Source: Candidatus Electrothrix yaqonensis (GTDB taxonomy: Bacteria; Desulfobacterota; Desulfobulbia; Desulfobulbales; Desulfobulbaceae). From it: 32,000 bases of DNA. Both the position numbers and the translations under genes were made by a program. The notes beneath the pieces were generated by a model, which worked only from the letters and a program-made list of their open reading frames with translations, was not told the DNA's origin and made no database searches. Positions 2,775 to 31,027 of the stretch are shown in pieces (position 1 is the first letter of the stretch; each line of letters starts with the position of its first letter). The stretch is from NCBI GenBank assembly GCA_047651235.1, contig CP178758.1:1500001-1532000 (forward strand). Direction: 5' to 3'.

Positions 2775-3214
2775 TGGGTAGGAGCGATAAACTGTTTCAT
2801 AAACGCAAAGCCCGGAGTGCTGCCGATCATAAAAGAAGATTGGCCAAAAGATCTCCCTATGACCGCGTGCTCATTGTCTGTGAAGGCAAGAAGACCGAAC
2901 CTGATTACTTCAAAGCGCTGATTGATGACCTGCAGTTGAACACTGCTAATATCAGAATTGCAGAAAATACCGCCGGTTCATCGCCACGCAATGTGGTCGA
3001 TCTAGCACTGCATGAGTACAAAAAAGACAAAAAGGCGGGTAGGGAAAGCGGTGAACAATATGATAGGGTCTATTGCGTTTTTGATAAAGATCAGCACGTA
3101 ACCTATCTGGAAGCGATTGATATTGTTCGAGGACAGCAAGCAAAAGATCAGCAGGTTATGGAGCATAGTGCTTACTTCTACTTTGTCAACCATAACCTTT
3201 TGATCTATTTGTAA
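2774..3214 (+). CDS. RloB-like protein (AbiLii-like), 3' truncated by IS insertion; native sequence ends near 3172
   Basis: The RloB N-terminal signature is RVLIVCEGKKTEPDYFKAL, followed by YCVFDKDQH. Its ATG overlaps the ATPase stop (TAATG at 2772-2776). The last ~14 codons and the stop are read from the IS terminal repeat. Confidence 0.8.
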   Translation: MGRSDKLFHKRKARSAADHKRRLAKRSPYDRVLIVCEGKKTEPDYFKALIDDLQLNTANIRIAENTAGSSPRNVVDLALHEYKKDKKAGRESGEQYDRVYCVFDKDQHVTYLEAIDIVRGQQAKDQQVMEHSAYFYFVNHNLLIYL

Positions 3215-3349
3215 AAACTTCTTGCAATATCCGGATAAAGTTGTATCTTTCATTAGGAAAATTTTATCGCTTTTTGATCAAGATAGCACCTGATAACAGC
3301 TATCAAAAAAATACCCGTCAATCGCCCTGATTATAACTTTATTCTTTTT

Positions 3350-4224
3350 ATGAACGCTCCCAGCCCCGAAAAAAGAAGTCCCCATGACAAATTCTTTGAG
3401 TTGACCGGCATCGCCCCACAACTTGCGTCATTTCATGAAAGATATCATCTCTTTTTTAAGAGACATACAGTAAGTTTGTCAGATAAAGCATTCCAATACT
3501 TGAAAGGTTTATTCCAGTCTGACAAAAAAACATGGAACGTATGGAGGAAAAGGTTCCGGGCGTTAAATATGAGCCCCTCCAGTATTTTCTTTCCGAATCG
3601 AACTGGGATTGGCGTCCTGTAAACAACCAAGTAGCTAAAGATGCAGATAAACTTTTAGGAGGGAGGAAAAACAGTGCTCTTTTAATTGATGAATCCGGGA
3701 TACCCAAAAAGGGTAAAATGTCTGTTGGGGTTTCTCGTCAATGGTGCGGGCAGCTTGGTAAAACCGACAACTGTCAAGTAGTTCTACTTTGGCGATCATA
3801 AACATAACTAGCTTATTTTTATTAAGTATTTAAAAACCCCTGTTTTTAGTATTATTAATATTATTAAATAGTTAATGGTATGGTCACCAAAGTAGAATTA
3901 GTTGTCAGACGTGAGGTTAAGTCCCCGAAAAAAATTAAATATAGCCTAAGTAATGCGGAAAGTAACACGTCAACAAGACGACTTGCATATATGCAAGCTC
4001 AACGATATTGGGTTGAACGGCCATTTCAGGATGCAAAAAATGAATGTGGAATGGGTGATTATCAGGCTCGGGGATGGCTGGCTTGGCATCATCATATGAC
4101 TATGGTCATGATGGCCATGTTGTTTATGGTCGAGCAACGATTATACCATCAAGTCGGTGTCCCGTTATTGAGTTGCGCTGATATAACAACATTACTCAAG
4201 TCAATTTTCCACGTCGAGATGTAA
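3350..4224 (+). pseudogene. IS701-family transposase, fragmented (ORFs 3350-3622, 3532-3801, 3880-4224)
   Basis: Motifs present are YLKGLF, EPLQYFLSESNWDW, LLIDESGIPKKGKMSVGVSRQWCGQLGKTDNCQV, and the C-terminal KYSLSNA...RYWVERPFQDAKNECGMGDYQARGWLAWHHH. The frame changes at the A7 tract 3524-3530. The central DDE region is missing. Confidence 0.85.
3779..3900 (+). repeat. about 120-bp AT-rich mini-element bounded by IS701-like terminal repeats, nested inside IS copy 1
   Basis: tagttctactttggcgatcataa (left) and ggtcaccaaagtagaatta (right) resemble the IS's own IRL and IRR. The interior has no ORF and is very AT-rich. The left boundary is ambiguous by about 3 nt. Confidence 0.6.
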
Positions 4225-6801: not shown

Positions 6802-8334
6802 TCACCCCGTATCAAACTGCTGCCGCCGGTACTGCACCGCCTCGGCCACATGGGCGGCATCGATCCGCTCGGCTCCGGCCAGATCGGCAATGGTCCGGGC
6901 GATTTTGACAATACGGTGAAAGGCCCGTGCTGACAGGCCCAGCCGATCAATGGCGCTGTTGAGCAGAGCACTGCCGGGTCGGTCCAGCGGACAGAAGGCC
7001 TCGAGCTGGCGGGAACCCATCTGGGCATTGCAGTTGACGGACGGTTCTGCGGCAAAGCGCTGCTGCTGCACCCTGCGGGCCTGATTGACCCGCTCCCGGA
7101 TGGACTGTGAGGACTCACCGGGCTGCCGGGAGCTGAGTTCCTCCACCTGAACCGGCGGCACTTCCACATGCATGTCGATCCGGTCCAAAAGCGGGCCGGA
7201 CAACTGGTTGCGGTAGCGCTGTACCCGAATCGGTGTGCAGGTGCATTTTTTCACTTTGTCACCCAAGAAACCGCAGGGACACGGGTTCATAGCCGCCACC
7301 AGCATAAAGTCGGCCGGAAAGCGGAGACTGGCCGCTGCCCGGGCAATGGTGACAATGCCGTCTTCCAGAGGCTGGCGCATAACCTCCAGGACATGCTTGC
7401 GAAATTCCGGCATTTCATCCAGAAACAGGACGCCGTTGTGGGCCAGTGAGACCTCACCGGGCCGGGGAATCCGGCCGCCGCCGATCAGCCCGGCATCAGA
7501 GATAGTGTGATGGGGCGTGCGGAAGGGGCGGGTCACCAGCAGGGGCATGTCCTCGGGCAACAGCCCGGTGGTGGAATAGATCTTGGTGGTCTCCAGGGCC
7601 TCGGCAAGGCAGAGATCCGGCAGGATAGTGGGCAGTCGGCGGGCCATCATGGTCTTGCCGGTGCCGGGCACGCCGCTGAGCAGCAGGTTATGTCCGCCTG
7701 CTGCTGCCACCTCAAAGGCCCGTTTGGCGTGCTCCTGTCCCTTGACCTCGGAGAAATCCACCGGATACTCGCTCCGCCTGCTGAACAGGGCCTGCACGTC
7801 AGTGCGGGAAGGTTCAATATGCTGACGACCTGCCAGATAATCCACTGCCTGCCTAAGCTGTTCCACGGCAATAACCTCAATCCCGCTGACCACTGCCGCC
7901 TCATGGGCGTTCTCCGCCGGAACCAGAATGCGCTGAATCCTGTTCTGTTCCGCCTCAAGGACCATCGGCAGCACGCCCCGTACCGGGCGGACCGCGCCGT
8001 CCAGAGAAAGCTCGCCCACAACCGCAGTCTTTTCTAGGTCCGGGCAGGCCAACGTCCCGGCTGCTGCAAGGATGCCAAGGGCAATGGGCAGATCATACCC
8101 GGCGCCCTCCTTCTTGACGGATGCCGGGGCCAGATTGACCGTGATCCTGCGGGGCGGGAATTCATAGCCGGAGTTCTTGATCGCGGCCTTGACCCGATCC
8201 TTGGCTTCACGCACTGCGCCCTCAGCCAGGCCGACTGTGGAAAAGCCGGGCAGGCCCAGGGCTAGGTCCACTTCCACCCGGATGATCAGGCCCTCCACCC
8301 CTGTGACGGCACCGCTTAAGGTTTTGGCAAGCAT
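6802..8334 (-). CDS. comM: YifB/ComM family Mg-chelatase-like ATPase
   Basis: A 510-aa protein with a Lon-protease-like N-terminal domain (GLPGFSTVGLAEGAVREAKDRV), Walker A GVPGTGKT, and motifs GVLFLDEMPEF and AAMNPCPCG. Confidence 0.95.
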   Translation of the reverse strand: MLAKTLSGAVTGVEGLIIRVEVDLALGLPGFSTVGLAEGAVREAKDRVKAAIKNSGYEFPPRRITVNLAPASVKKEGAGYDLPIALGILAAAGTLACPDLEKTAVVGELSLDGAVRPVRGVLPMVLEAEQNRIQRILVPAENAHEAAVVSGIEVIAVEQLRQAVDYLAGRQHIEPSRTDVQALFSRRSEYPVDFSEVKGQEHAKRAFEVAAAGGHNLLLSGVPGTGKTMMARRLPTILPDLCLAEALETTKIYSTTGLLPEDMPLLVTRPFRTPHHTISDAGLIGGGRIPRPGEVSLAHNGVLFLDEMPEFRKHVLEVMRQPLEDGIVTIARAAASLRFPADFMLVAAMNPCPCGFLGDKVKKCTCTPIRVQRYRNQLSGPLLDRIDMHVEVPPVQVEELSSRQPGESSQSIRERVNQARRVQQQRFAAEPSVNCNAQMGSRQLEAFCPLDRPGSALLNSAIDRLGLSARAFHRIVKIARTIADLAGAERIDAAHVAEAVQYRRQQFDTG

Positions 8335-8713
8335 GGCGTTACGTTACGATATTGTCAGATATGCGGAACATTACAGATTTTCTCTCTGGGAATGCAAATC
8401 CGAGTACACTTAGCATGTGCACAGCAGGATGTCAATGGGCTGCGGCTGGTGAATTGGGTGGAAGCGTGACCGGTTCATCAGTCCGAGCAATCTTGGGAAG
8501 AGGTCGGAGCCACGAAAAACAGCTCATCATTCCGTAATCAAAAGTAAAATTCAACAAAATAAAAGTTCATTTTTTCAAGATACCCGCTTTATGCAGATGT
8601 GTTGCGCAGCTTTTCAACGGATCATCCCAACACCGGGCCGCATAATTTGAGGCCGTGAAGAAAGGAAAGGGTGGGCTCTGTCTTATCCCTTCCTCTTTAT
8701 AGGCATCGGAAAA

Positions 8714-9013: not shown

Positions 9014-9485
9014 GGTGAGATTCTTTTCTTTTTATGGGGTATAAGAATTACCCACAATTGCGGACTGATTCAGCCTGTTGTTGATGCGTTTTTGCTCGAA
9101 ATAAAAAGGAAAATCTTTATTCTTTCGTTCAGCATAGCAAAAACTTTGCCGTATTTCACCCTTGTTTCAATGCTGAAGGCGGGCAGATATATAGCGCGTT
9201 CCCCTATAGAAAGGCAATGAAAGGTGTTCACGGTATTCATTTTAAACACTTTCAAGGGGTTGTCTTTCATGCAGGTCTTCACGCCACCTGCATTTCTTTT
9301 CTGTCTTTCCAGTTGCTCAGGGAGGTTGCAGGGGTGGGGCTTTACCTGTGATTTGTGAAAACCTGCCCCCACGGGCAAGAGACAGGGGACGCGGCATCTT
9401 ATCAGCAAATCGGATAATCGTTGATTTTATCCGGCAATATAATTAAAGTACAAGAAGGAAAAGGAAAGTACACGGAGGAAACATC

Positions 9486-9650
9486 ATGGCAACAGCAATC
9501 AAAGAAACCCCTGTTCTGAAAGGGGAGGCAGCCCGCCATTTTCTCAAGACTATAAGGGCAAATGAACAGAAAAAGGTGCCCAAGGCCGATTATAGAAGGG
9601 CAAAAGAGGCATACAAAAATTTCAAAGTAGTCTGTTCCGCCTGTGGATAG
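9486..9650 (+). CDS. 54-aa protein, putative antitoxin-type partner of the downstream GNAT gene
   Basis: It is not in the ORF track because it is under 60 aa. It reads MATAIKETPVLKGEAARHFLKTIRANEQKKVPKADYRRAKEAYKNFKVVCSACG*. A strong GGAGG RBS sits 6 nt upstream, and its stop overlaps the GNAT GTG start by 8 nt. Confidence 0.6.
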   Translation: MATAIKETPVLKGEAARHFLKTIRANEQKKVPKADYRRAKEAYKNFKVVCSACG

Positions 9651-10182
9651 TTCAGAAATTATATTTAGACGAATGGGGGCCGATGAAGATCGGCCCCTTT
9701 TTTATTGCGGTAGTCAAGACCTGAATGAATTCTTCCATGAAGATTCAAAGGAGGCGGACAGGGAACTTGTGGCCGTGACCTATGCCGTGGAAGTGGAAGG
9801 CTCGACAGTCGCCTTTTTCTGTGTCTCAAACGACTCCATACGGGCGGAAGATACCACACGCTCAAGATTCAAAAAGATACGCTCCAGCATTCCGGCAGCC
9901 AAAAGATATGCAAATATGCCAGCGGTGAAAATCGGGCGGCTTGCAACGAATTCCGACTTTCAGAGTCAGGGGATAGGAACCCGGATTCTTGATCTTATCA
10001 AGGTGTGGTTCACGGAAGGCAATAAAACAGGCTGCCGTTTCATCATCGTGGATGCGGCCAATAATGAAAGGACGCTGGAATTCTACAAACGGAACGGCTT
10101 TCAGTTTCTTGATATTCGGCCAGAAGTCGCTGAAGACAGAACCCGGTTGATGTTCTTTGATCTTCTGACTTTCAGGGAATAA
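9643..10182 (+). CDS. GNAT family N-acetyltransferase, TacT/KacT-like toxin type
   Basis: It has FYCGSQDLNEFF (the F-x-CG...L-x-F motif about 20 aa from the start, as in TacT), PAVKIGRLATNSDFQSQGIGTRIL (the acetyl-CoA loop) and IIVDAANNERTLEFYKRNGF. Confidence 0.8.
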   Translation: MDSSEIIFRRMGADEDRPLFYCGSQDLNEFFHEDSKEADRELVAVTYAVEVEGSTVAFFCVSNDSIRAEDTTRSRFKKIRSSIPAAKRYANMPAVKIGRLATNSDFQSQGIGTRILDLIKVWFTEGNKTGCRFIIVDAANNERTLEFYKRNGFQFLDIRPEVAEDRTRLMFFDLLTFRE

Positions 10183-10348
10183 AGATCATTCCCTCACAAT
10201 GAGGCGTTCTCTAAACTTCCTGCATCATTGCTGGCTGTTCTTTGGTGATTGGGAGCCGGTTTGGTGGACAAGCATAACGCCTGTTAAACTCGCATTTTTC
10301 AAAGCATGGTGGCGAGAAATGTCAGGTTGAAACTAATGTAAGTGGTTT

Positions 10349-12034
10349 CTAAATCACTATTAGTCCTGGGTTAATCGAGTGTGAGTCTATCAGGTTTACT
10401 AAATCAGTAACAAATTTTCTGTTTTGATTTATAAAACTAATAATTGATTCAAACGGATTAATTGGACTACATTCTTTATATCGGAATCCATCATATTTAA
10501 AGTATTTTTGTTCAGAATTAATGGTGTCACATTTGTAATTTGAGTATTCCAAGCCACATATTGAACAAATATCAATATCGTTTAGTTGAGACCCTCCTGA
10601 ATCAAGTATGGAAAAAAGAAATTTTTTTTCATCCCCGCCATAAGCTTGGTTAAAAACCTCTTGAAGAGAAACTTTTTTGTTATTGTCAGCCAAACCACCA
10701 AAATATACCCTTTGTACATCATCTCCTTTCAGCGTTAGATAATAGCTTGGTGTATATATTCTTGCTTCACATTCATTTGCCGCCTTATCAATACGGTAAA
10801 TAGACAAAAGAGTGTTGCACGGATTTAAAATTTCAATTTTCCCCTCAAATTCCTTTTTCTTTCTCAATAACAAAGATTCTTCAATTGCCTTTTTTACTCC
10901 ACATTTCCACATTAGGTTGTTTTCTAAACAGATTTCGGTTTCTTTTAAAATTTGATTAAATACTGATTTGATCTCTGAATTGAGTGTTTTTGAATAATAT
11001 TGTTTATTACTCCCAGTGCTGCCTGTTAGTTCTTCTATTATAGTTTTATCAGACAATAGTACATTTTCCTTAAAGCTACCTCCCCTAATTATCTCTTCTA
11101 TCTTCCACCCTTCGAGTTTCAATATCTTGTTACCTAAATTGGAAGGATAACTTGATTCGTAGTGTTCATGAAATGGTACTGGATCACAACTTAAAACATA
11201 GCCATGTAGATTATAATCTAATTCTTCTGTACTCATACTTTCAATCTCATCTTTGATGTTTTTATAATAAGAAGGATTATTTTTTATTATCTGTAGGTAT
11301 TCTTCGCGACTTAAAACGTTAACAGACGAGTAAACTATAAATTTGTATTCGGGAATGCTTTCATTTATCTCTTCATAAGTATATGAATGTTCAAATTCAA
11401 AAGAATCCGCAATATTATTTAATCCAGCGCGACACGCTAGAATTTCATACTTACGAAAATCCGGGTGAGAACTTAGTACCAACAAAACATAATTATTAAT
11501 TCCTTTTTTTAAATAACATGAGATATGACTTTTTATCCCTTTTTGAAGACTTGTTCTGTTTGAGTATAACCTAATCTCATGTTCATCACTCAGACATCTT
11601 TCGTTTTTCAATTTTAAAGGCTGTACCAAGTCAACTGATATTGGATTGTATTGGTCATCAATTTTAAGCTTGAATCCTTGAACCGAGTATGCTGATTCAG
11701 CGGCAAAACTAGAAAAAGGAACTATCAATTCACTCCATTCCGTAGATACCACATACGCAGTAATTTCATCATTTTTCAAACTTTTGCTTCTTTTGATTCC
11801 TTCGATATACTTTAAAACTTCATGAATTGCTTCGCGGCTTGAGGAAGTACTCCTCTTCAACTCAATGATTACATACCTGTTATGATCATCTGTTGCCAAT
11901 AAATCAATGAACCCTCTTGTACCTTCGTTGTTAGGAAGGAAAGACTCTTTATCAAGATATTTAAGGTTTTTATTGAATATGTCCAGACTGTTAGATAGCT
12001 TATCTCTGATTTCATTTTCGATTTTTCTTTTCAT
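10349..12034 (-). CDS. 561-aa protein: N-terminal NucS/DUF91-like PD-(D/E)XK nuclease module plus about 450 aa of unknown function
   Basis: GFIDLLATDDHNRYVIIELKRSTSSSREAIHEVLKYIEGI supplies D44 and E58-x-K60 plus the following helix, as in NucS-type nuclease domains. The rest has no motif I recognise, apart from a Cys cluster (CSICG...KCD...KEC) near the C-terminus. It is strongly AT-rich relative to its flanks. Confidence 0.75.
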   Translation of the reverse strand: MKRKIENEIRDKLSNSLDIFNKNLKYLDKESFLPNNEGTRGFIDLLATDDHNRYVIIELKRSTSSSREAIHEVLKYIEGIKRSKSLKNDEITAYVVSTEWSELIVPFSSFAAESAYSVQGFKLKIDDQYNPISVDLVQPLKLKNERCLSDEHEIRLYSNRTSLQKGIKSHISCYLKKGINNYVLLVLSSHPDFRKYEILACRAGLNNIADSFEFEHSYTYEEINESIPEYKFIVYSSVNVLSREEYLQIIKNNPSYYKNIKDEIESMSTEELDYNLHGYVLSCDPVPFHEHYESSYPSNLGNKILKLEGWKIEEIIRGGSFKENVLLSDKTIIEELTGSTGSNKQYYSKTLNSEIKSVFNQILKETEICLENNLMWKCGVKKAIEESLLLRKKKEFEGKIEILNPCNTLLSIYRIDKAANECEARIYTPSYYLTLKGDDVQRVYFGGLADNNKKVSLQEVFNQAYGGDEKKFLFSILDSGGSQLNDIDICSICGLEYSNYKCDTINSEQKYFKYDGFRYKECSPINPFESIISFINQNRKFVTDLVNLIDSHSINPGLIVI

Positions 12035-12220
12035 ATCAATAGCACTTTGATTTTTTTATAAAAGAGAGAATAAACGATTAGCTCTACCTTGCTACTGTTT
12101 CATAGCTGCTCCAAATATAACCATTACTATACAGGATAGAGGCCATTCAGGCGGCAAAAAAAGAAGGCGCAATGACGGGGGACACAGCGGGGTGTCACGG
12201 GTTCGAATACTGAAAACAGG

Positions 12221-12624
12221 TTACTGGCCTCCCTCCTGCCGCTCCGTCTTGATCCTCTGCCACCGCCGCCAGCTCTCCGGGGTGCTGATCGGCCCTATAT
12301 GCGCCTCAATCTCCCTGCCCGACGCTCCCAGCTCCAGCAGGGTTTCAAAGACCGACTGCCCACCTGACCAATACCGGTTTTATCATCAGCATCAAGCGGT
12401 ATGCGTAGCCTGCCCAGATCATCCAGAAAGGGCAACGGCAGTTCATGCCGCTGCCCTGACTCGCTCTGAAGGTATGCCAGCAGCTCCGCTTTATGCTCCC
12501 GGATCAACGGGGCAAGGCGATTAATCTGCTCCGCCTCACCCTTTGCCTTGATCCTGCCTGCCGAACCAAGACAGAAGGACACCCCGACCTGTTCGGCAAG
12601 TTCAAGAAAAGCTGCCGGTTTCAA
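12221..12624 (-). pseudogene. small island gene with a frameshift (hypothetical; leucine-rich helical N-terminus)
   Basis: The track ORF 12295-12624 (MKPAAFLELAEQVGVSF...DADDKTGIGQ) is followed in another frame by a much more protein-like continuation: YWSGGQSVFETLLELGASGREIEAHIGPISTPESWRRWQRIKTERQEGGQ*, ending at 12221. The frames switch near 12370-12385. Confidence 0.5.
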
Positions 12625-12777: not shown

Positions 12778-15759
12778 TCACCCTCCCGGCGAATCCGCAG
12801 CCCGAATTTTTACCCCGTCGCTCTTTCTCTCTTTGCGAACATGCGCCCCTTGAGTCTGTGCAGCATCAAGCACCGATGCGCTGAACCGTTGAAGAGAAAC
12901 GCTTTTCCTTTCGTTTTCCTGACACCACGTCAGATAATTGGGATACAGGCGTTCATCGGAATCCTCATAAGAAACAGCTCCGTATTCCCGGCGTTCCTTT
13001 TTTGTGCCGACCTGTACCGCTGCATCAGGATCGGGCAAGAGGTTTTCCGCCATCCAGGCAAAAACAGGATTGTTGAACATGGCCGCATCCAGATTGGCCC
13101 GGCGTACCCGTTCCGGCATAACCCTGAAAATATCCGTGACCTCTTCACGGGAGAGCTTCAAAGCCCAATTGATGATACCCGGTGCCTCGTTGTATAGAAT
13201 CGTTTCCTCTCCGCCGCGTTTATCCCATGCGGCCCGCTCTTCCTTTGTTATCCTTCTGTCGAATTCAAGGGTTATTCTTCTGCGCTCAAGGCCGCTTGTA
13301 TAATCCGTGCTGGCAAGCCGTTCATTGCTCATCATAAGGGTTTGCCCCTCATAGATGAATGAACCTTCCTGCTGTTTGTTCTTGCGCTCCAGCCGTAGCG
13401 GGTCTTGTCCGGTCATGGCCTTCAGTTGGCTGACCGAACCGCCGTACTTGTCCGCCTCTTCAATGGCGGTTAACCGTTTGCCGTGGATATTGGCGGTTTC
13501 AAATTTATTGGTTTCCAGTTCCTTCAGACTGGTTGTGGTGGTGTTTTCATTGCCCACCAATTGAAAAGCCAATCTTCCCAAGGTGCTTTTTCCGGTGCCT
13601 GCCGGGCCGATGAGGTGGAGAAAGACCTGTAAATCAGGGCGACCTGTGAACAATGCATTGAACCATGCCTGAATCAAACGGACAGACTCCGGGTCATCAT
13701 CCAGAGCTGTTGTAAGCCATGCAAGGAAGTCCGGGCAGTCTGCATCAGGAGAGTATTCATAAGGCAATACCCAGGTATGGGCATTTTCCGCCGTTACGGG
13801 CACAAGCTTCCCTGTGTTCTGATCAAGCAGACCGTTTTGAAAGGGGATGGTGCCGGGCAGGGGATCGGGTAGCGGGTTCCGTCCGCTCTTCTGCAAGAGC
13901 TGGCTTATTCCGTTTTGGTAATTGTTGCTGAAACCGAGTCCGGCAGTTGCCGTGTAGAGCAGAGCGTTCAGGGCACCCTCAAACTCTGAAGCGGAACATT
14001 TTTGCCAGCAGCATTCATCAAAACAGTACCAGCACAGCCCGGACATGCTGAAAGCGTACAGGCCGTGCAGGGTTTCAGCGAATAATGCCGCCGCTTCCGA
14101 TTCCGGGGCCGGTCTGTCTCCTTTTTGGGTTTCAATAACCATAACCCCTTGAAGATGAAGAACTTTTTCTTTTAATGAAGAGGGTAATGAAGAATAAGGT
14201 ATTGATAATGAAGAAGATGAAGGCTGTGAAGACTGAAAACTCTTCCTTACAGGAGAAACCCTGCTTATATCCCTGTCCAGCTCCTTCAGCAGTACGGCTC
14301 CGTTTGCGGCCTTGAGGTCTTTTCGCACCCGCATAAACCGGGCCTTGTCCTTCTGCTTCAGGCGGGCCAGCATCTTCAGCGCATCCTCTGCAAAGGGTGC
14401 CCCGCAATCCTCCTTTGTCTGTTGGATGAGTTCCGGCAGGGCTGTATCATAATCAATGGGTTTCTCTGCTCCGTACCGCCTGAACCGGTATTTTATGCCG
14501 CCGTGGGCCTGACTGTAGATCAAAGGGTTCTGGCCCTCGTTCCAGTAGAAAACAGCCTTGCTCATGCTGCCCCCGTCGTATTCTGGTTCCAGAGGATCGG
14601 CACAAGACTTGTTATCAAACGCCTGCCCATTGTCCAGCACAGAGGCCACGCTGACCGGCTCTTTTTCATGAGCAAACAACAACAAATCATCATCAACAAG
14701 GATATGGTGCTGTCGGGCCTTGACCGTCTCCCGTGCCTGCTCCATGCTGACCTTTCCGCCTGATTCTGAACTGAGCTTTTCTGCTTCCTGCTCAAGGTAG
14801 GCCCCTTTAATGCGCTCCTGATCCGGGGCACCTTTCGCTTTCAGTTGGTGGATAATCTCCTGATACGTCTTTTCCTCTTCCGGGTTAAGATCGTTCAGGG
14901 CTTGGGTATCCAATAACCGGCCCGGCTGATACTCCGAGGCGGGCAACCTTTGTTCAAGGCCCTTATCACAGACAGCACCGGCCACAAAATCCAATCTCTC
15001 AGGGGAGGCAACCAGCAAATCAACCAGGGTACGCACCAACACGGCACCCGACCGGCTGAACTCCACCCGGCCATATCCGGCAAGTATCAAGCGTTTTCCC
15101 AAAACATCCAGAAAACGGGGCGTGTCCGCTGCATTCTGCGGGAACAGATAGAGGTGAAAGCCTGCGCTTTTTCCTCTCAGCTCTTTTCCTGTGTCCGTAT
15201 CATGGATACAGGAGGAAGTCGAATAAACGGCAACCTGTGCCGCTTCTTTTATGGACTCAAAAAAGCCCGCAATGGTGTTTATAAGCTCTTTCGGGCTGTA
15301 TGCCTTCAGTGCCTTCTCAGAATCAAGGGCAACCGCGTTTTTACGGGCCTTGTCATGATCCAGCATGAGCAGGCCCGGCCCGTCTGGATAGTGAAAGAAA
15401 TCCTTTGTTCTGGAGATGATCGGCAAGCCCTGTTCATCAGCCTGCGGACTCTCCCCCGGCCTTGTCTTCAGCCGCTTTCCGCTGACTATCAGGGCTTTGT
15501 CGTAATCACTCACCCCGTGGACAATGGCCTGATTGCTTTGCAATCCTTGCAGGAAGGGGCCGAATTGCTCCGGCTTTATGCGCACCGTTTCAGCCCGGCC
15601 CCTACTCATCCGACATTCTGAGCTGTCTTTTTCAATGCAGCCGTTTACCCGCTTCATGCGCTTTGTCAAAATGCCCTGTGTTTTGTGCATCAGGGTAAAA
15701 GACACTTTCTGTTCTTTACCTTTGCCCGGTGCATGGGCTTTGTTTTCCGCTAAAGTCAT
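12778..15759 (-). CDS. bifunctional primase/helicase: N-terminal AEP (prim-pol)-like region plus P4-family/D5-type SF3 helicase C-terminal domain
   Basis: The C-terminal half has FLHLIGPAGTGKSTLGRL (Walker A), RLTAIEEADKY and QTLMMSNE, as in P4 alpha/D5 helicases. The N-terminal half has LLMLDHDKA (a DxD-type motif) and GKSAGFHLYLF (an sGxH-type motif). Confidence 0.85.
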   Translation of the reverse strand: MTLAENKAHAPGKGKEQKVSFTLMHKTQGILTKRMKRVNGCIEKDSSECRMSRGRAETVRIKPEQFGPFLQGLQSNQAIVHGVSDYDKALIVSGKRLKTRPGESPQADEQGLPIISRTKDFFHYPDGPGLLMLDHDKARKNAVALDSEKALKAYSPKELINTIAGFFESIKEAAQVAVYSTSSCIHDTDTGKELRGKSAGFHLYLFPQNAADTPRFLDVLGKRLILAGYGRVEFSRSGAVLVRTLVDLLVASPERLDFVAGAVCDKGLEQRLPASEYQPGRLLDTQALNDLNPEEEKTYQEIIHQLKAKGAPDQERIKGAYLEQEAEKLSSESGGKVSMEQARETVKARQHHILVDDDLLLFAHEKEPVSVASVLDNGQAFDNKSCADPLEPEYDGGSMSKAVFYWNEGQNPLIYSQAHGGIKYRFRRYGAEKPIDYDTALPELIQQTKEDCGAPFAEDALKMLARLKQKDKARFMRVRKDLKAANGAVLLKELDRDISRVSPVRKSFQSSQPSSSSLSIPYSSLPSSLKEKVLHLQGVMVIETQKGDRPAPESEAAALFAETLHGLYAFSMSGLCWYCFDECCWQKCSASEFEGALNALLYTATAGLGFSNNYQNGISQLLQKSGRNPLPDPLPGTIPFQNGLLDQNTGKLVPVTAENAHTWVLPYEYSPDADCPDFLAWLTTALDDDPESVRLIQAWFNALFTGRPDLQVFLHLIGPAGTGKSTLGRLAFQLVGNENTTTTSLKELETNKFETANIHGKRLTAIEEADKYGGSVSQLKAMTGQDPLRLERKNKQQEGSFIYEGQTLMMSNERLASTDYTSGLERRRITLEFDRRITKEERAAWDKRGGEETILYNEAPGIINWALKLSREEVTDIFRVMPERVRRANLDAAMFNNPVFAWMAENLLPDPDAAVQVGTKKERREYGAVSYEDSDERLYPNYLTWCQENERKSVSLQRFSASVLDAAQTQGAHVRKERKSDGVKIRAADSPGG

Positions 15760-16284: not shown

Positions 16285-17659
16285 TGATCAAGGGGTGCGA
16301 TTAAAAGTGCGGTTTCTGACACCTTACGCTGCCCAGCTTATATTCTCCCAATATTTATCCCAGTATCCGTCCGCACGGTCAACTCTCAGGGAAAGCATGA
16401 TTCGGGCATTTTCCGGTGTCCACCATGCGCTGGCTATTTTCAGACGTTCCTGGATGACATACCGGTGCGCACTTTCTATTTCTCCAGAACCGATAGGTAA
16501 ACCAAGCTGTTGAGCATCGGGATAGTCGAACTGCCCCGGACGGTTGCTCAGGTAACGCAGGCAGCAGCGGACAGGTGCATTTTGATCTTTTGTCTTTTCC
16601 GGCTCAAGATGAGGCTTCAATGCTTCGATCAGTTTTTTTTCCTGTCCCTTTTTCAGGCGCTCTTTCTGCTGCTTACTCCATGATCCTTTTCCGTCTTTCC
16701 CGGAACATGCCGGTGCAGCAGCCTCCAGGTATTCACAAACATGATAAAAATCGACAAGGTAATGTCCCTGTGAACCGAACTGTTTTTTCACCTGCCCGGA
16801 AATCCACGTTGCTCCGTCACCCACTGAATGCAGAGATGTACCCCGACCGAATCCCGCACGGCAGGCGCAATCAAAGAGAACCTTTCCCGACTCGTCAACG
16901 TTTTCCTGAAATGCAACTCCGAATTTAAGCGTCCTTTCACCGAGAACATGAGCTATACTCAGGCGTGCTTCTTTCCAGCTGTGCTTTTTACCTTTGCGCC
17001 GGTCCCTGGCATCTGTATCCGTCAGGACAATCGGAACCATGCTGCCGTCCGTCTCGGCAATAACGAAGTCCCGTCCCTTTTCAGCCGGATATTCTTCAAT
17101 TCTCTCCTGTCGACGTCTTTCATGTATGTGTCGGGCGTGAGTCTCCGTGATATTTCGGACAGTACTTACCGGTAATGTTATCCCATAATAGACCTCCTGC
17201 AAAACTTGGTGATTTGACAGAAACGGCGGATGCCAATGTGTTTTTTTGACCGCTACGGGTACAATTACCGTCCGTCGGAAGAGCTGCCCCGGATTTTTCA
17301 ATTCGACTCTCCGCCCATCCGCTGAGCACCTCATTACCCATCCGGCGAACTTCCTCAATGACCCTACTTTCGGCCTCATCAGCTTTTACAATCCCGTCTC
17401 CGTCATCACCGGCTATAGAAAGAATAGCTTGAATACGCGTTTTCAGATTTGGCTGACGGTTCAATTGATTGAGCAATTCCTTATCTTCCTGTGACAGTGA
17501 GGACATAAATATCTTCTCCGGGATAATATTATACGAACGGACAACACAGCATCCTGATTACTTGCTGTTTCTTTCTCAAAGAAATCAAAGTAACAGAAAA
17601 ATACGCTCTCATGCATCCCGTAATTGATAAAACCGCACTTGTAATCGCACCCGTGATCA
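16285..17659 (-). mobile_element. ISKra4-like insertion sequence (1375 bp) with about 30-bp imperfect terminal inverted repeats
   Basis: The left end tgatcaaggggtgcgattaaaagtgcggttt (16285-) matches the reverse complement of the right end, tgatcacgggtgcgattacaagtgcggtttt (-17659). I saw no target duplication. Confidence 0.7.
16324..17506 (-). pseudogene. ISKra4/ISLre2-type DDE transposase, split into two overlapping frames (17120-17506 and 16324-17379)
   Basis: Motifs are SVGDGATWI, YLVDFYHVCEYL and LPIGSGEIESAHRYVIQERLK...WW. An A7 tract (17241-17247, T7 on the plus strand) lies within the frame overlap. The family call is from motif memory only. Confidence 0.65.
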
Positions 17660-17672
17660 AGAAAAGAATTGC

Positions 17673-17720
17673 TGGCAAATGCCAAACAAAAAAGGCAATT
17701 GCCAAATATGACAAATGCCT
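17673..17720. promoter_or_regulatory. array of three related palindromes (tggcaaatgcca, ggcaattgcc, tgacaaatgcct): operator-like sites
   Basis: Direct reading places them at 17673-17684, 17694-17703 and 17709-17720. The first two centres are 20 bp apart. The array lies in the orf278-alpA intergenic region and directly abuts the IS right end. Confidence 0.35.
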
Positions 17721-17766
17721 TGAATAAAAAAAATAGCACTGAATCGCGCTGCCAAAAAAGCAACAT

Positions 17767-18603
17767 TTAAGAGTTTTTGTTCTCCTGTTTTTTGTTCTCT
17801 TTTATCTGCTCCAGCGCATCGGAAATTATTTTTCTCAGGCTTGAATTTTGGAAGCCTTTATCTGAATAACCCACCTTGGTCAGTTCTTCCTGAAAAGCCT
17901 CGGCAATTGCTGAACTATTCGGTTTATCACCGATCCGGTATTTACCGGTATCCTTTTTCAAATAGACTGTCTGGACGAATCCGCCGATAATCTTCAGCAA
18001 ATTGCTTTCTCTTTTTGGTGAAAGGGAGGGGGCAGAATCATTTTCTTTTGGCTCTGCTTTCGCTTGTTCCTCCCCTTCATAAGGGTATTCCTCCTTGAGC
18101 CATGAAAGGAAAGATTCGGCTTTCAACAGAAGAGGACTCGGCCTTGGCTCATAAAAAGAAGATTCAAATGCCTCTTTCCGCTCTTTGCTAACTCCAGTAA
18201 GTCCCCCATTAAGACAGTGCTCAATAATATTTTTTTGATCATCAATATTGTCCATATCTCCATAAGCTGACCAATGTTCTTTTCTGAATTTATATTTAAT
18301 TTTTCCATGAAAAACAGCTAACAGGAGCATTTCCTGTCTGTCTTCATTGTCTTTATAAAAGCGTTTGTAATGTTTATAATGCGCCCAGTCATCAGCTTCA
18401 GCGAGGCATTCTATCACTCTTAGAAACTCTTTATATTCTTTACTGCCCTGCTGAAGTTCCATTTTTTCCTCTTTTTCCGGTGAATCCTGCAAAAGCGGCA
18501 CCTGTACCCCTCTGCCCTGCTCTGCAAGTGCCTTGTCCATTTCATTAAAGGCTCTTTGGCACTTGAATAAATCCGTCATCTCATCCCAATTAATGTTCGG
18601 CAT
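17767..18603 (-). CDS. 278-aa hypothetical protein, overlapping the integrase stop
   Basis: Its ATG at 18603 overlaps the integrase 3' end by 14 nt. It is a charged, helical-looking protein that is AT-richer than the integrase. No family recognised. Confidence 0.6.
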   Translation of the reverse strand: MPNINWDEMTDLFKCQRAFNEMDKALAEQGRGVQVPLLQDSPEKEEKMELQQGSKEYKEFLRVIECLAEADDWAHYKHYKRFYKDNEDRQEMLLLAVFHGKIKYKFRKEHWSAYGDMDNIDDQKNIIEHCLNGGLTGVSKERKEAFESSFYEPRPSPLLLKAESFLSWLKEEYPYEGEEQAKAEPKENDSAPSLSPKRESNLLKIIGGFVQTVYLKKDTGKYRIGDKPNSSAIAEAFQEELTKVGYSDKGFQNSSLRKIISDALEQIKENKKQENKNS

Positions 18604-19795
18604 ATTCCATCTCCTGTAATAAATCCCCCCACCACTGCATTAAGTCCCGCCGCTGCTCAAGGTACTCGCTCCGATGGTATGCGGCCCTCACCTTGTTGCG
18701 CTGCTCATGAGCAAGGGCCTTTTCAATCACATCACCGTCAAAGCCTGATTCATTGGCTATGGTGGAGAAGACCGCTCGGAAGCCGTGAACCGTGGCCCTT
18801 GAATGGTACCCCATCCGATACAGGGCATAGAGCATAGTATTTTCAGAAAGTGATTTAACACCATCCCGGCCAGGAAAGATAAGCCCCTCTTTTCCGTGAA
18901 GCCTCCCCATCTGCTCAATGATCGCCACGGCCTGCGTTGACAAGGGCACATTATGCGGATTATCCATTTTCATACGCTTGGCCGGTATGCGCCACAAGGC
19001 GGTGTCCAGGTTGATTTCATCCCAGGTAGCCCCCCGCGTTTCTCCGCTTCTGGCTGCTGTTAAGATGGTGAAGCGCAAGGCCGCTTTCGTGGTAATATCA
19101 ATATCACCCTGCGCAAGGGTACGCATGAACTCCGGCATCTCCTCCCGTGAAAGAGCGGCCCTATGTACCACCTTGCGCGTTTTCAAGGCCCCCTGCATAT
19201 CAGCAGCCGGGTTATATGTGGCCCTGCCGGTCTGGACGGCAAAACGAAAGACTGCATTCATTCGTTGTAAAACCTTATGGGAAACTTCCAAGGCTCCCCG
19301 GCTCTCAATCTTCTTTACCACCTCAAGAACCATTGGCGGGGTAATTGCCTCAACCCGACTTTCTCCAAGCAGGGGGAAAGCGTCACGCTCCAGAGTGCCC
19401 TGAACAGCTGTTGCATGGTTCCGGCTCCATCTCTCTCCTTGCTGCTGCATCCATTCACGGGCCACGGCTTCAAAACTGTTCGCCGCCACTTTACGTTCAG
19501 CTTCCTGCTGTTCAATGACCGCCTGTTTCTGCTCCTTCCGTTCATGAGCCGGGTTGATACCTGCCTTGACCTTCTCCCGCGCCTCTGTTCTTGCCTTGCG
19601 TGCCTGTTCAAGGCTCATGTCGGGATACTCTCCGAGAACACAGGTTGATTCTTTTTTGTCCAGCCTGAAACGATACCGCCACGTTTTTTTACCGGAAGGG
19701 GCAACATGAAAATTCAGGCCCTGCCCATCGGCTAATTTATAGGCTTTCTCTTTTTGTCTTGCGTTACGTACTTGAACTGTTGTAAGTTTTGCCAT
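18590..19795 (-). CDS. int: tyrosine-type site-specific integrase, P4-like (DUF4102 N-terminal domain)
   Basis: The N-terminus is MAKLTTVQVRNARQKEKAYKLADGQGLNFHVAPSGKKTWRYRFR (the DUF4102 arm-binding signature). The catalytic region has TAARSGE...HGFRAVFST...LAHEQRNKVRAAYHRSEY. I prefer the ATG at 19795 to the track start at 19870. Confidence 0.92.
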   Translation of the reverse strand: MAKLTTVQVRNARQKEKAYKLADGQGLNFHVAPSGKKTWRYRFRLDKKESTCVLGEYPDMSLEQARKARTEAREKVKAGINPAHERKEQKQAVIEQQEAERKVAANSFEAVAREWMQQQGERWSRNHATAVQGTLERDAFPLLGESRVEAITPPMVLEVVKKIESRGALEVSHKVLQRMNAVFRFAVQTGRATYNPAADMQGALKTRKVVHRAALSREEMPEFMRTLAQGDIDITTKAALRFTILTAARSGETRGATWDEINLDTALWRIPAKRMKMDNPHNVPLSTQAVAIIEQMGRLHGKEGLIFPGRDGVKSLSENTMLYALYRMGYHSRATVHGFRAVFSTIANESGFDGDVIEKALAHEQRNKVRAAYHRSEYLEQRRDLMQWWGDLLQEMEYAEH

Positions 19796-19920
19796 TCTTG
19801 CAACCTCTATAAAAAAATGGGTACGGATCTTGGATACGTGAATCCCTTTGATAGATACCCCCATTTGCACCCCCTTTTTGCAGCGGATGTCAACGGAAAA
19901 TAATGGACGAACTCGGAAGA

Positions 19921-19998: not shown

Positions 19999-20086
19999 TG
20001 GTGCCGGAGGTCGGAGTCGAACCGACACGGGCGCAAGGCCCGCTGGATTTTGAGTCCAGTGCGTCTACCAGTTTCACCACTCCGGC
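19999..20086 (-). tRNA. tRNA-Leu (anticodon CAA), class II with long variable arm, CCA encoded
   Basis: The reverse complement is GCCGGAGTGGTGAAACTGGTAGACGCACTGGACTCAAAATCCAGCGGGCCTTGCGCCCGTGTCGGTTCGACTCCGACCTCCGGCACCA. The acceptor stem is GCCGGAG/CTCCGGC, the anticodon loop is CTCAAAA and the T-loop is GTTCGACTC. Confidence 0.95.
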
Positions 20087-28421: not shown

Positions 28422-29426
28422 TACTTCTACTTTGGCAACCATAACCTTTTGATCTATTTGTAAAAACTTCTTGCAATATCCGGATAAAGTTGTATCTTTC
28501 ATTAGGAAAATTTTATCGCTTTTTGATCAAGATAGCACCTGATAACAGCTATCAAAAAAATACCCGTCAATCGCCCTGATTATAACTTTATTCTTTTTAT
28601 GAACGCTCCCAGCCCCGAAAAAAGAAGTCCCCATGACAAATTCTTTGAGTTGACCGGCATCGCCCGGCAACTTACGTCTTTTCACGAAAGATATCATCTC
28701 TTTTTTAAGAGACATACAGTAAGTTTGTCAGATAAAGCATTCCAATACTTGAAAGGTTTATTCCAGGCTGACAAAAAAACATGGAACGTATGGAGGAAAA
28801 GGTTCCGGGCGTTAAATATGAGCCCCTCCAGTATTTTCTTTCCGACTCGAACTGGGATTGGCGTCCTGTAAACAACCAAGTAGCTAAAGATGCGGATAAC
28901 ATTTTTGGAGGAAAGGAAGATAGCGCTCTTTTAATTGATGAATCCGGGATACCCAAAAAGGGTAAAATGTCTGTTGGGGTTTCTCGTCAATGGTGCGGGC
29001 AGCTTGGTAAAACCGACAACTGTCAAGTAGTAGTGTTTGCAACTTTGGGATATGGTCGCTTTTCAACGCCGATCGACTGTCGGCTGTATTTACCGAAAAG
29101 CTGGACGGATGACAAGGAACGTTGTCTTAAGGCTAAGGCTCGGGGATGGCTGGCTTGGCATCATCATATGACTATGGTCATGATGGCCATGTTGTTTATG
29201 GTCGAGCAACGATTATACCATCAAGTCGGTGTCCCGTTATTGAGTTGCGCTGATATAACAACATTACTCAAGTCAATTTTCCACGTCGAGATGTAAACGA
29301 AGATGAAGTTATAAGACAGCTTTGTCAACGGCATGAAAAGAGGCAAGCTTCGATTGATTTCGCATATGAGAAACAACGGAATTGCAAATTATTACCACAG
29401 CCTTTGTGAGTGCCAAAGTAGAATTA
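28422..29426 (+). mobile_element. IS701-family insertion sequence, copy 2 (both ends present, in-frame internal deletion), inserted into an IS630 transposase gene
   Basis: It has the same ends as copy 1. The right end abuts the His codon of the IS630 motif DLNPIEH at 29426/29427. Confidence 0.85.
28599..29296 (+). pseudogene. IS701-family transposase, A7 frame split plus deletion joining KERCLKAK directly to ARGWLAWHHH
   Basis: ORFs 28599-28871 and 28781-29296. Compared with copy 1 it lacks LVVRRE...GMGDYQ. The central catalytic region is absent. Confidence 0.85.
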
Positions 29427-30321: not shown

Positions 30322-30850
30322 AGACAACGTTCCTTGTCATCAGTCCAGCTTTTCGGTAAATACAGCCGATAGTCGATTGGCGTGGAAAAACGGCCATATC
30401 CCAAAGTCGCGAACACTGCTACCTGACAGTTGTCGGTTTTACCAAGCTGCCCGCACCATTGACGAGAAACCCCAACAGACATTTTACCCTTTTTGGGTAT
30501 CCCGGATTCATCAATAAAAAGAGCGCTATCTTCCTTTCCTCCAAAAATGTTATCCGCATCTTTAGCTACTTGGTTGTTTACAGGACGCCAATCCCAGTTC
30601 GATTCGGAAAGAAAATACTGGAGGGGCTCATATTTAACGCCCGGAACCTTTTCCTCCATACGTTCCATGTTTTTTTGTCAGACTGGAATAAACCTTTCAA
30701 GTATTGGAATGCTTTATCTGACAAACTTACTGTATGTCTCTTAAAAAAGAGATGATATCTTTCGTGAAAAGACGTAAGTTGCCGGGCGATGCCGGTCAAC
30801 TCAAAGAATTTGTCATGGGGACTTCTTTTTTCGGGGCTGGGAGCGTTCAT
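30322..30850 (-). pseudogene. IS701-family transposase N-terminal fragments (30578-30850 and 30322-30668)
   Basis: It shows the same two-frame arrangement around the A7 tract (T7 on the plus strand, 30670-30676). The sequence is nearly identical to copies 1 and 2. Confidence 0.85.
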
Positions 30851-31027
30851 AAAAAGAATAAAGTTATAATCAGGGCGATTGACGGGTATTTTTTTGATAG
30901 CTGTTATCAGGTGCTAGCTTGATCAAAAAGCGATAAAATCTTCCTAATGAAAGATACAACTTTATCCGGATATTGCAAGAAGTTTTTACAAATAGATCAA
31001 AAGGTTATGGTTGACAAAGTAGAAGTA
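30322..31027 (-). mobile_element. IS701-family insertion sequence, copy 3 (left end and 5' ~700 bp only)
   Basis: The IRL is tacttctactttgtcaaccataacc, read on the minus strand and ending at 31027. It is collinear with copies 1 and 2 up to the MITE junction. Confidence 0.85.

Follow-up and report, generated by a model that had tools for sequence, protein, structure and literature searches.

A Mobile Gene of Candidatus Electrothrix yaqonensis Joins a NucS-Type Nuclease Domain to a Large Body without Recognisable Relatives: A Candidate Single-Gene Defence Family

The Locus and the Gene

A window of 32,000 nucleotides (nt) was analysed in Candidatus Electrothrix yaqonensis, a member of Desulfobulbaceae (assembly GCA_047651235.1, contig CP178758.1, positions 1,500,001 to 1,532,000 of the forward strand; the coordinates given below are those of the window). 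In the cargo of an integrative island, it harbors a gene coding for a protein of 561 amino acids (aa), in which a short N-terminal nuclease domain (further referred to as the head) is followed by a much larger C-terminal part (the body); the protein is considered here as a candidate for a defence effector encoded by a single gene. The open reading frame (ORF), its extent, and its length had been proposed in an initial annotation made from the letters of the sequence, and the ORF list bears them out, placing the gene on the minus strand (Table 1). The exact-sequence look-up retrieved the protein record XOF35047.1, deposited for a 3.74-Mb contig of Candidatus Electrothrix sp. YB6 and labelled "endonuclease NucS domain-containing protein".

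The nuclease gene, a part of the island cargo, is foreign by its composition, standing at about 32% against a flank of about 52%. Its content of guanine plus cytosine (G+C) is 31.8%, falling to 26.9% in the third codon positions, vs. 47.6% in the adjoining gene of a GNAT acetyltransferase, 52% in the primase and integrase genes of the island, and 63% in comM (48–63% in the genes flanking the nuclease gene). The AT-rich, foreign look remarked upon in the initial annotation was confirmed, including its sampled values: the 60-nt lines within the gene range from 23 to 43% G+C, and positions 12241–12300 reach 65%.

Table 1. Features of the nuclease gene and of the surrounding island (window coordinates).
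Feature	Position	Strand	Evidence
Putative nuclease–sensor fusion gene, complete, 561 aa, ATG start	10349..12034	-	ORF list, exact-sequence look-up, full-length homologues
N-terminal nuclease head, residues 1-114, NucS_C-type PD-(D/E)XK domain	11693..12034	-	Pfam, Foldseek, conservation
Catalytic segment D44...E58-x-K60, DLLATDDHNRYVIIELK	11855..11905	-	Translation; triad invariant in 63 sequences
C-terminal body, residues 115-561, alpha/beta; proposed sensor or regulatory module	10352..11692	-	AlphaFold2 model, profile search
Non-coding region upstream of the nuclease gene, travelling with it; presumed promoter region	12035..12343	-	Within the block common to L001
Cargo cassette: 54-aa ORF, GNAT gene, nuclease gene, and ~300 bp upstream	9409..12343	.	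blastn vs. L001
Two-gene unit with a layout resembling that of toxin-antitoxin modules: 54-aa ORF and 179-aa GNAT acetyltransferase; convergent with the nuclease gene	9486..10182	+	Pfam, PHROGs
D5_N + DUF5906 primase-helicase, 993 aa, island backbone	12778..15759	-	Pfam
Tyrosine integrase, island backbone	18590..19870	-	Pfam Arm-DNA-bind_3, Phage_int_M, Phage_integrase
tRNA-Leu(CAA), presumed integration target adjoining the integrase	19999..20086	-	ARAGORN

The Nuclease Head

The first ~114 residues of the protein represent a NucS-type PD-(D/E)XK nuclease domain with an intact D-ExK triad. A head of this type had been recognised initially from the catalytic motif, and both the peptide quoted at that time and the numbering of D44, E58, and K60 agree with the translation. 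The Pfam family NucS_C (PF01939) matches residues 6–86 above threshold (26.6 bits vs. the gathering score of 24), and the three catalytic residues are invariant across 63 aligned homologues. The same alignment revealed the invariance of R67, E72, K75, and Y76 in the next helix as well as of the segment "STEW.EL..PFSSF". Collectively, the triad, the helix, and this segment suggest that the head is catalytically competent throughout the family, so a nuclease activity can be expected from its sequence.

The comparison of AlphaFold models with solved structures by Foldseek, put forward as a check along with the initial annotation, led to the same domain. The full-length AlphaFold2 model (predicted local distance difference test, pLDDT, 86.8; predicted template modelling score, pTM, 0.77) was matched by solved structures over ~110–119 columns only, i.e., over the head, and the matching folds included EndoMS/NucS (5gke, 2vld, 5gkj), the nuclease domain of Card1, and the nuclease of AdnA. 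The body submitted alone had no match (see below).

The C-Terminal Body

The body is predicted to be a well-folded entity: the AlphaFold2 model of residues 115–561 alone, built on an alignment of 66 sequences, displayed a mixed alpha/beta architecture with a pLDDT of 91.5 and a pTM of 0.83. At the same time, the ~450 residues described initially as unassignable have kept this status, since neither sequence nor fold searches disclosed a recognisable domain in them. No Pfam family was found in the body of the window protein searched in three pieces or in 18 family members searched singly, the weak matches all being singletons. NCBIfam and PHROGs contained no relatives of the body, the PADLOC models did not match the protein beyond its head, and the sequences of PDB yielded no match to the body with either phmmer or a profile. 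Likewise, Foldseek returned no relative of the body among the PDB folds (best E-value 0.29, probability 0.12) and no match among the viral folds of BFVD. In particular, known modified-base readers (of the SRA, EVE, YTH, winged helix, GmrSD, or Mrr_N type) and known protein-sensing folds (STAND, TPR, etc.) were not detected in the body by Pfam or Foldseek.

The two parts of the protein differ in their conservation. The mean pairwise identity within the family amounts to 55% for the head and 30% for the body, whose most variable and indel-prone patches comprise residues 201–220, 381–400, 421–440, and 501–520. A conserved head combined with a variable body is what one expects where an effector stays constant and the specificity module attached to it diversifies.

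Certain more specific possibilities were considered for the body and rejected. A cryptic second nuclease or an internal repeat was sought with hhalign by comparing the head with five body segments and these segments among themselves; no probability reached 20%, and overlapping segments accounted for the top score. The cluster of cysteines near the C-terminus (C490, C493, C502, C522), pointed out in the initial annotation, is indeed present in the window protein but specific to its lineage: other members possess A, P, L, or Y in these positions. Hence, it was discarded as a zinc site, the match to zf-HIT being below threshold as well. The C-terminus of the protein is weakly conserved in the 63-sequence alignment and has a low pLDDT in the full-length model.

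Size, Spread, and Variants of the Family

The gene had been introduced as an orphan, which proved to be wrong. A word-indexed search retrieved 113 homologues, most of them full length at 29–51% identity and one (P0001) at 91%, from sources including Arcobacter, Vibrio, Shewanella, Pseudomonas, Burkholderia, Calothrix, and many metagenomes. An exhaustive search with the profile of the body alone expanded this set to 652 representatives at the 50% cluster level, spread over many bacterial phyla and at least one archaeon, of which 493 had an E-value of 1e-10 or lower and 234 of 1e-30 or lower. Among the best 150 of these 652 matches, the body of the complete proteins begins at residue ~113–120, so the same head of ~113 aa precedes it and the body does not behave as a shuffled module. 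The idea of a promiscuous body combined with other effectors was therefore abandoned as far as these best 150 matches are concerned, their complete proteins all possessing the same head.

In a scan with one genome per species, 71 loci were found in ~185,000 species, distributed over Proteobacteria, Bacteroidota, Bacillota, Cyanobacteria, Acidobacteriota, Leptospira, Planctomycetota, Actinomycetota, and the archaeal genus Methanolobus. The family is thus widely distributed but thinly represented, as is typical of accessory genes that move horizontally. One plasmid with a full-length family copy was encountered, and the family was absent from 50,697 phage records; a phage origin was rejected on the latter ground and for the lack of a viral fold match.

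Several members are extended at their C-terminus. One of them (P0229, 762 aa) possesses a TIR domain at residues ~543–639, slightly above the thresholds (TIR_2, 28.4 bits vs. 28; TIR, 21.7 vs. 21.3), so two effector-type domains are predicted within one chain. Three proteins of 690–711 aa display a Crr6-like region (PF08847) at residues ~553–668, scoring, against the cut-off of 25, 29.5 bits in P0153 and 29.2 bits in P0157 but 16.6 bits, i.e., below it, in P0185. A subgroup of ~640–650 aa (P0039, P0045, P0068) is distinguished by a Cys-rich tail (CDLC...CADC) without a Pfam match.

Neighborhoods of the Homologues

An association of the homologues with defence and mobile contexts, anticipated in the initial annotation, is evident from both the neighborhood annotation and PADLOC. 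Annotated neighborhoods were inspected at nine further loci. The locus from a gammaproteobacterium comprises GmrSD, Mrr, an EcoO109I-type (type II) restriction-modification (R-M) pair, and HNH; that from Aliifodinibius comprises RAMA, HNH, PHP-SMC, a type III R-M system, and RadC. In Pseudomonas, a comM-splitting island carries an SMC/HATPase/TCAD9 system, a ParS-type antitoxin, and an AAA-peptidase pair; in Burkholderia pseudomallei, Mrr is located inside an integrase/Prim-Pol-D5 island directly adjoining tRNA-Gly. The locus of Pseudomonas aeruginosa features type III CBASS, PIN, ImmA/IrrE, and MvaT, the Bacteroidales locus a Cap4-type nuclease, a group II intron, and IS66, with two GNAT genes directly upstream, and one further locus a DEAD/ResIII protein of 1,060 aa.

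A broader survey covered the two nearest ORFs on each side of the gene at 48 non-redundant loci, 149 ORFs overall. The most widely shared Pfam family among these neighbors was GNAT (5 of the 149 ORFs), and no family was common to more than five of them; in the absence of a recurrent neighbor family, the nuclease gene appears as a stand-alone unit. As regards methyltransferases, none of their families recurred in two or more of these ORFs among the top 25 of the 135 families, although single cases may exist. A conserved small partner downstream was also considered and rejected, since the 74-aa ORFs following the gene in L002 and L005 are unrelated.

The PADLOC matches among the nearest neighbors included GajA (2e-238), GajB (2e-246), and HamB (E = 0) along with PprPIWI, PprDinG, HEC-05, a DRT helicase, and MADS. 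With the annotated neighborhoods included, Gabija, Hachiman, pPIWI-RE, CBASS, Mrr, GmrSD, and R-M systems are represented next to the family. The near ORFs matched 291 PADLOC models vs. 67 matched by control ORFs more than 7 kb away, a comparison which is only qualitative, because the far set also lies within defence islands, larger than the flanks, and because models, not genes, were counted. The phage-satellite context initially proposed for the gene of the window turned out to be that of a minority of the loci: within 10 kb, a D5-type primase was found at 2 of the 48 loci and a detectable integrase at 4 of them, and a tRNA gene was situated nearby at about 6 of 43 loci.

Exchange of the Cargo Cassette

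The mobility of the gene is illustrated by the comparison with L001, another island harboring a family member. A single block of 2,949 bp (window 9409–12343 vs. L001 4910–1967) is shared at 92.9% identity (blastn), whereas between the island backbones the similarity is limited to 312 bp at 80%, and L001 possesses a different integrase and a Toprim/DUF3987 primase. A cassette so similar between such diverged backbones is a clear instance of cargo being exchanged between islands.

Outside this block, a stretch of 65 bp (window 8611–8674 vs. L001 1866–1930) is 90.8% identical. In the window, it is located at the comM-proximal end of the island; in L001, it directly adjoins the upstream region of the nuclease gene. 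This stretch could represent an island terminal or a recombination site.

Comparison with Known Systems

Several described systems resemble the protein in part. In END^Mag, which restricts phages carrying modified G, a NucS-like PD-DExK head is coupled with an EndoIII/Ogg sensor that is inactivated (PMC12191111). The protein from the window shares with it a single polypeptide uniting a NucS-like PD-(D/E)XK domain and a large C-terminal non-catalytic module, the absence of a methyltransferase partner, and the location in defence islands. It differs in its body, which lacks a match to the helix-hairpin-helix (HhH)/EndoIII families of Pfam in any of the 18 members searched and has no EndoIII or Ogg1 fold match despite many solved structures, being predicted as mixed alpha/beta. 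The Shedu nuclease has been characterised as a distant relative of NucS/EndoMS (bioRxiv 10.1101/2023.08.10.552762). Shedu (SduA, DUF4263) is likewise a single-gene defence whose nuclease is gated by variable non-catalytic domains. However, the similarity of residues 5–65 to SduA_C (PF14082) is below threshold (15.6 bits vs. 27; E-value 0.019), the nuclease is N-terminal here and C-terminal in SduA, and no Shedu model of PADLOC was matched.

The best PADLOC match of the protein (E-value 5.4e-6) was to PDC-S11, a single-gene defence with a related nuclease head, which is itself only a candidate system. This match spans profile positions 25–106 of 358 and residues 6–95, so the 450-aa body is left without a counterpart. 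Card1/Can2 and Cap4-type effectors also combine a PD-(D/E)XK nuclease with a sensor domain, and the Card1 nuclease domain is a structural neighbor of the head; at the same time, the protein has no CARF or SAVED domain and no conserved cyclase or CRISPR neighbor. Type II R-M is set apart by the lack of a recurrent methyltransferase adjoining the nuclease gene.

With NucS/EndoMS, the protein shares the family of the catalytic domain (PF01939), its fold, and the D-ExK triad, but it is much longer (561 aa vs. ~225–250 aa). The N-terminal DNA-binding/dimerisation domain of NucS is missing, since the nuclease starts at residue 6. The NCBIfam equivalogs of NucS scored far below their cut-offs (NF003270, 29.7 bits vs. 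216; NF002876, 15.6 vs. 252), showing that only the domain is shared and that the protein is not a NucS orthologue. The mobile, patchy, and AT-rich genomics of the family also departs from that of vertically inherited repair, and true NucS is reported hardly to occur outside Actinobacteria, Deinococcus-Thermus, and Archaea (PMC5290159).

Overall, the protein is outside NucS/EndoMS, Shedu, END, PDC-S11, type II R-M, and the Cap4/Card1-type effectors. The initial annotation had been set against a full-length match to a characterised family; none was obtained for Shedu, Cap4, NucS, END, or PDC-S11. By its domain layout, the protein would belong to the general class combining a PD-(D/E)XK effector and a sensor in one chain.

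Possible Function and Its Alternatives

Collectively, the intact head, the fused and folded body, the lack of a conserved partner, and the mobile, defence-rich neighborhoods suggest that the gene encodes a stand-alone, horizontally mobile fusion of a nuclease and a sensor, most likely serving defence against phages or other invading DNA; the balance of probability tilts modestly to this explanation. The swapping of the cassette, the TIR-fused member, the patchy spread, the AT-richness of the gene, and the absence from phage records argue in the same direction. The defence role as such is assigned by guilt by association. Its architecture gains credibility by analogy with END^Mag, a tested precedent for a NucS-like head with a C-terminal sensor.

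Under this explanation, the head would operate as a metal-dependent DNA endonuclease, whereas the body would hold it inactive or untargeted on host DNA and license the cutting upon recognition of a feature of the invader. Since no conserved methyltransferase, immunity gene, or signal-producing partner accompanies the gene, self-protection would have to be built into the protein. In the preferred version, proposed by analogy, the body would directly recognise a DNA feature such as a modification, an end, or a structure, which is the mode of type IV restriction enzymes, Shedu, and END nucleases. Alternatively, it might be activated by a phage protein, with subsequent indiscriminate cutting as in abortive infection.

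A number of observations weigh against the defence explanation. PADLOC assigned the protein to no system, the weak and partial match to PDC-S11 being its sole response. The control ORFs located more than 7 kb away also included HamA, PprPDDEXK, ThsB, methyltransferases, and ApeA; accordingly, the association with defence is qualitative, and its enrichment is not properly quantified. In Shewanella, the homologue is a lone insertion after groES-groEL without defence neighbors. The body is acidic (isoelectric point 5.5), which disfavors a simple DNA-binding reader, and its fold, as predicted, offers no functional clue. The literature search turned up no paper describing the family and no experiment on any of its members; "endonuclease NucS" is merely listed in a horizontally acquired region of Burkholderia (PMC12755741).

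The first of the rival explanations is an abortive-infection effector, in which the body would sense a phage protein or another infection cue and release the nuclease on host and phage DNA, so that the infected cell dies. An acidic body with variable patches is what a protein-recognition surface might look like; a TIR domain, added in one member, is typical of abortive effectors; the gene adjoins a toxin-antitoxin-like GNAT pair; and neither a partner nor a methyltransferase is conserved. Of these points, the acidity of the body and the TIR fusion speak slightly in favor of this rival. At the same time, the protein-sensing folds known so far were not detected, and nothing in the present computational data separates such an effector from direct sensing of DNA. 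Abortive infection is regarded as the main rival, though an unlikely one.

A selfish function of the mobile element, e.g., an aid to the island in competing against a helper phage or other elements, its stabilisation by addiction, or homing-type endonuclease activity, is less probable still. It would conform to the patchy distribution, to the movement of the gene as a cassette, and to its presence among the cargo of three islands with an integrase and a primase, namely those of the window, of L001, and of L005. However, the scarcity of integrases and primases within 10 kb of the surveyed loci (see above) does not fit it, many loci reside in chromosomal defence islands beside unrelated defence systems, and the adjacent immunity gene needed by an addiction module is lacking.

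Housekeeping DNA repair by a NucS/EndoMS-like mismatch or branched-DNA endonuclease, as implied by the database name, appears highly improbable: NucS_C is the sole recognisable domain and some records name family members "endonuclease NucS", but the equivalog score, the missing N-terminal domain, the rare and patchy occurrence, the foreign composition within island cargo, and the few lineages with true NucS are all at odds with it. Equally improbable is a three-gene system of the nuclease, the adjoining GNAT acetyltransferase, and the small partner, notwithstanding their joint movement at 93% identity in the 2.9-kb block, the rank of GNAT as the commonest neighbor family, and the GNAT genes of the Bacteroidales locus, since homologues of the pair were found only in L001 (plus a marginal GNAT match in L025, E-value 3e-4), the other GNAT neighbors are unrelated acetyltransferases of a very common family, most loci lack a GNAT gene, and the orientation is convergent, not operonic.

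Returning to the defence explanation, a more far-reaching version of it may be formulated tentatively, at somewhat less than an even chance. The body would be a previously unseen sensor fold recognising an invader cue and licensing a NucS-type nuclease. The family would then constitute a new single-gene immune family of at least 652 clusters at 50% identity, with a recognition principle unlike those of Shedu, END, type IV enzymes, and signal-activated nucleases.

Candidate defence genes of the nuclease-sensor type are numerous. Still, single-protein fusions of this kind are the simplest bacterial immune systems, and each new sensor shows a new way of discriminating the foreign DNA or infection from self. 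A familiar effector joined to a confidently folded body without a relative in the sequence and Foldseek searches represents a clean target for structure-function work, all the more so in a large cross-phylum family missed by the current defence-annotation tools. Should the defence role be borne out, a function would become available for many "NucS domain-containing" genes that stand unannotated in defence islands, and the label "endonuclease NucS", wrongly suggesting mismatch repair, could be corrected.

The Island and Other Features of the Window

The initial description of the island as P4-like and tRNA-integrated stands as far as the tRNA-Leu, the integrase, and the D5-type primase-helicase are concerned; genes of the Psu, Sid, or Delta type were not recognised in the island with Pfam or PHROGs, so the "P4-like" label rests on the integrase and the primase only. 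In the 993-aa primase-helicase, D5_N and DUF5906 are confined to the C-terminal third, the first ~630 residues having no Pfam match. Four ORFs between the primase and the integrase (16324–18603; 351, 128, 101, and 278 aa) had no match in Pfam, PHROGs, or PADLOC, so the element may be P4-like, PICMI-like, or of another type. PADLOC, whose application to the island had been envisaged initially, recognised nothing there apart from the head of the nuclease (the weak PDC-S11 match), and no methyltransferase was found in the island with Pfam or PADLOC. An attachment (att) direct repeat of the 3' end of tRNA-Leu was not revealed by exact or seeded search, and the island boundaries were not obtained in this way.

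The supposed GNAT toxin pair next to the nuclease gene was confirmed in part. The GNAT gene matches Acetyltransf_7 and Acetyltransf_1 of Pfam and phrog_1758, and its start is overlapped by 8 bp by the 54-aa ORF, whose product ends in CSACG. On the other hand, this ORF had no match to an antitoxin family (DUF1778/ribbon-helix-helix) or to any other Pfam or PHROG family. The two genes may constitute a non-canonical GNAT toxin-antitoxin pair.

Beyond the cargo end of the island, the window contains an intact comM/yifB (6802–8334). In Pseudomonas sp. CP062251, comM is split by the island of the homologue, a Mg-chelatase fragment of 287 aa (L004 4242–5105) being left over. It seems that comM is a recurrent neighbor or target of these islands.

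The scan for promoters and terminators around the nuclease gene yielded nothing beyond the shuffle expectation and no significant sigma-70 consensus. The island of the P. aeruginosa family member also codes for a DNA-binding protein of the H-NS-like MvaT type (L078 16308–16661); together with the strong AT bias of the nuclease gene, this suggests that xenogeneic silencing may control the expression of the latter.

Elsewhere in the window, where G+C is mostly ~50–58%, further stretches of low G+C (38–41%) occur at 3001–4000, 17501–18500, 28501–29000, and 30501–31000 and may represent additional horizontally acquired segments.

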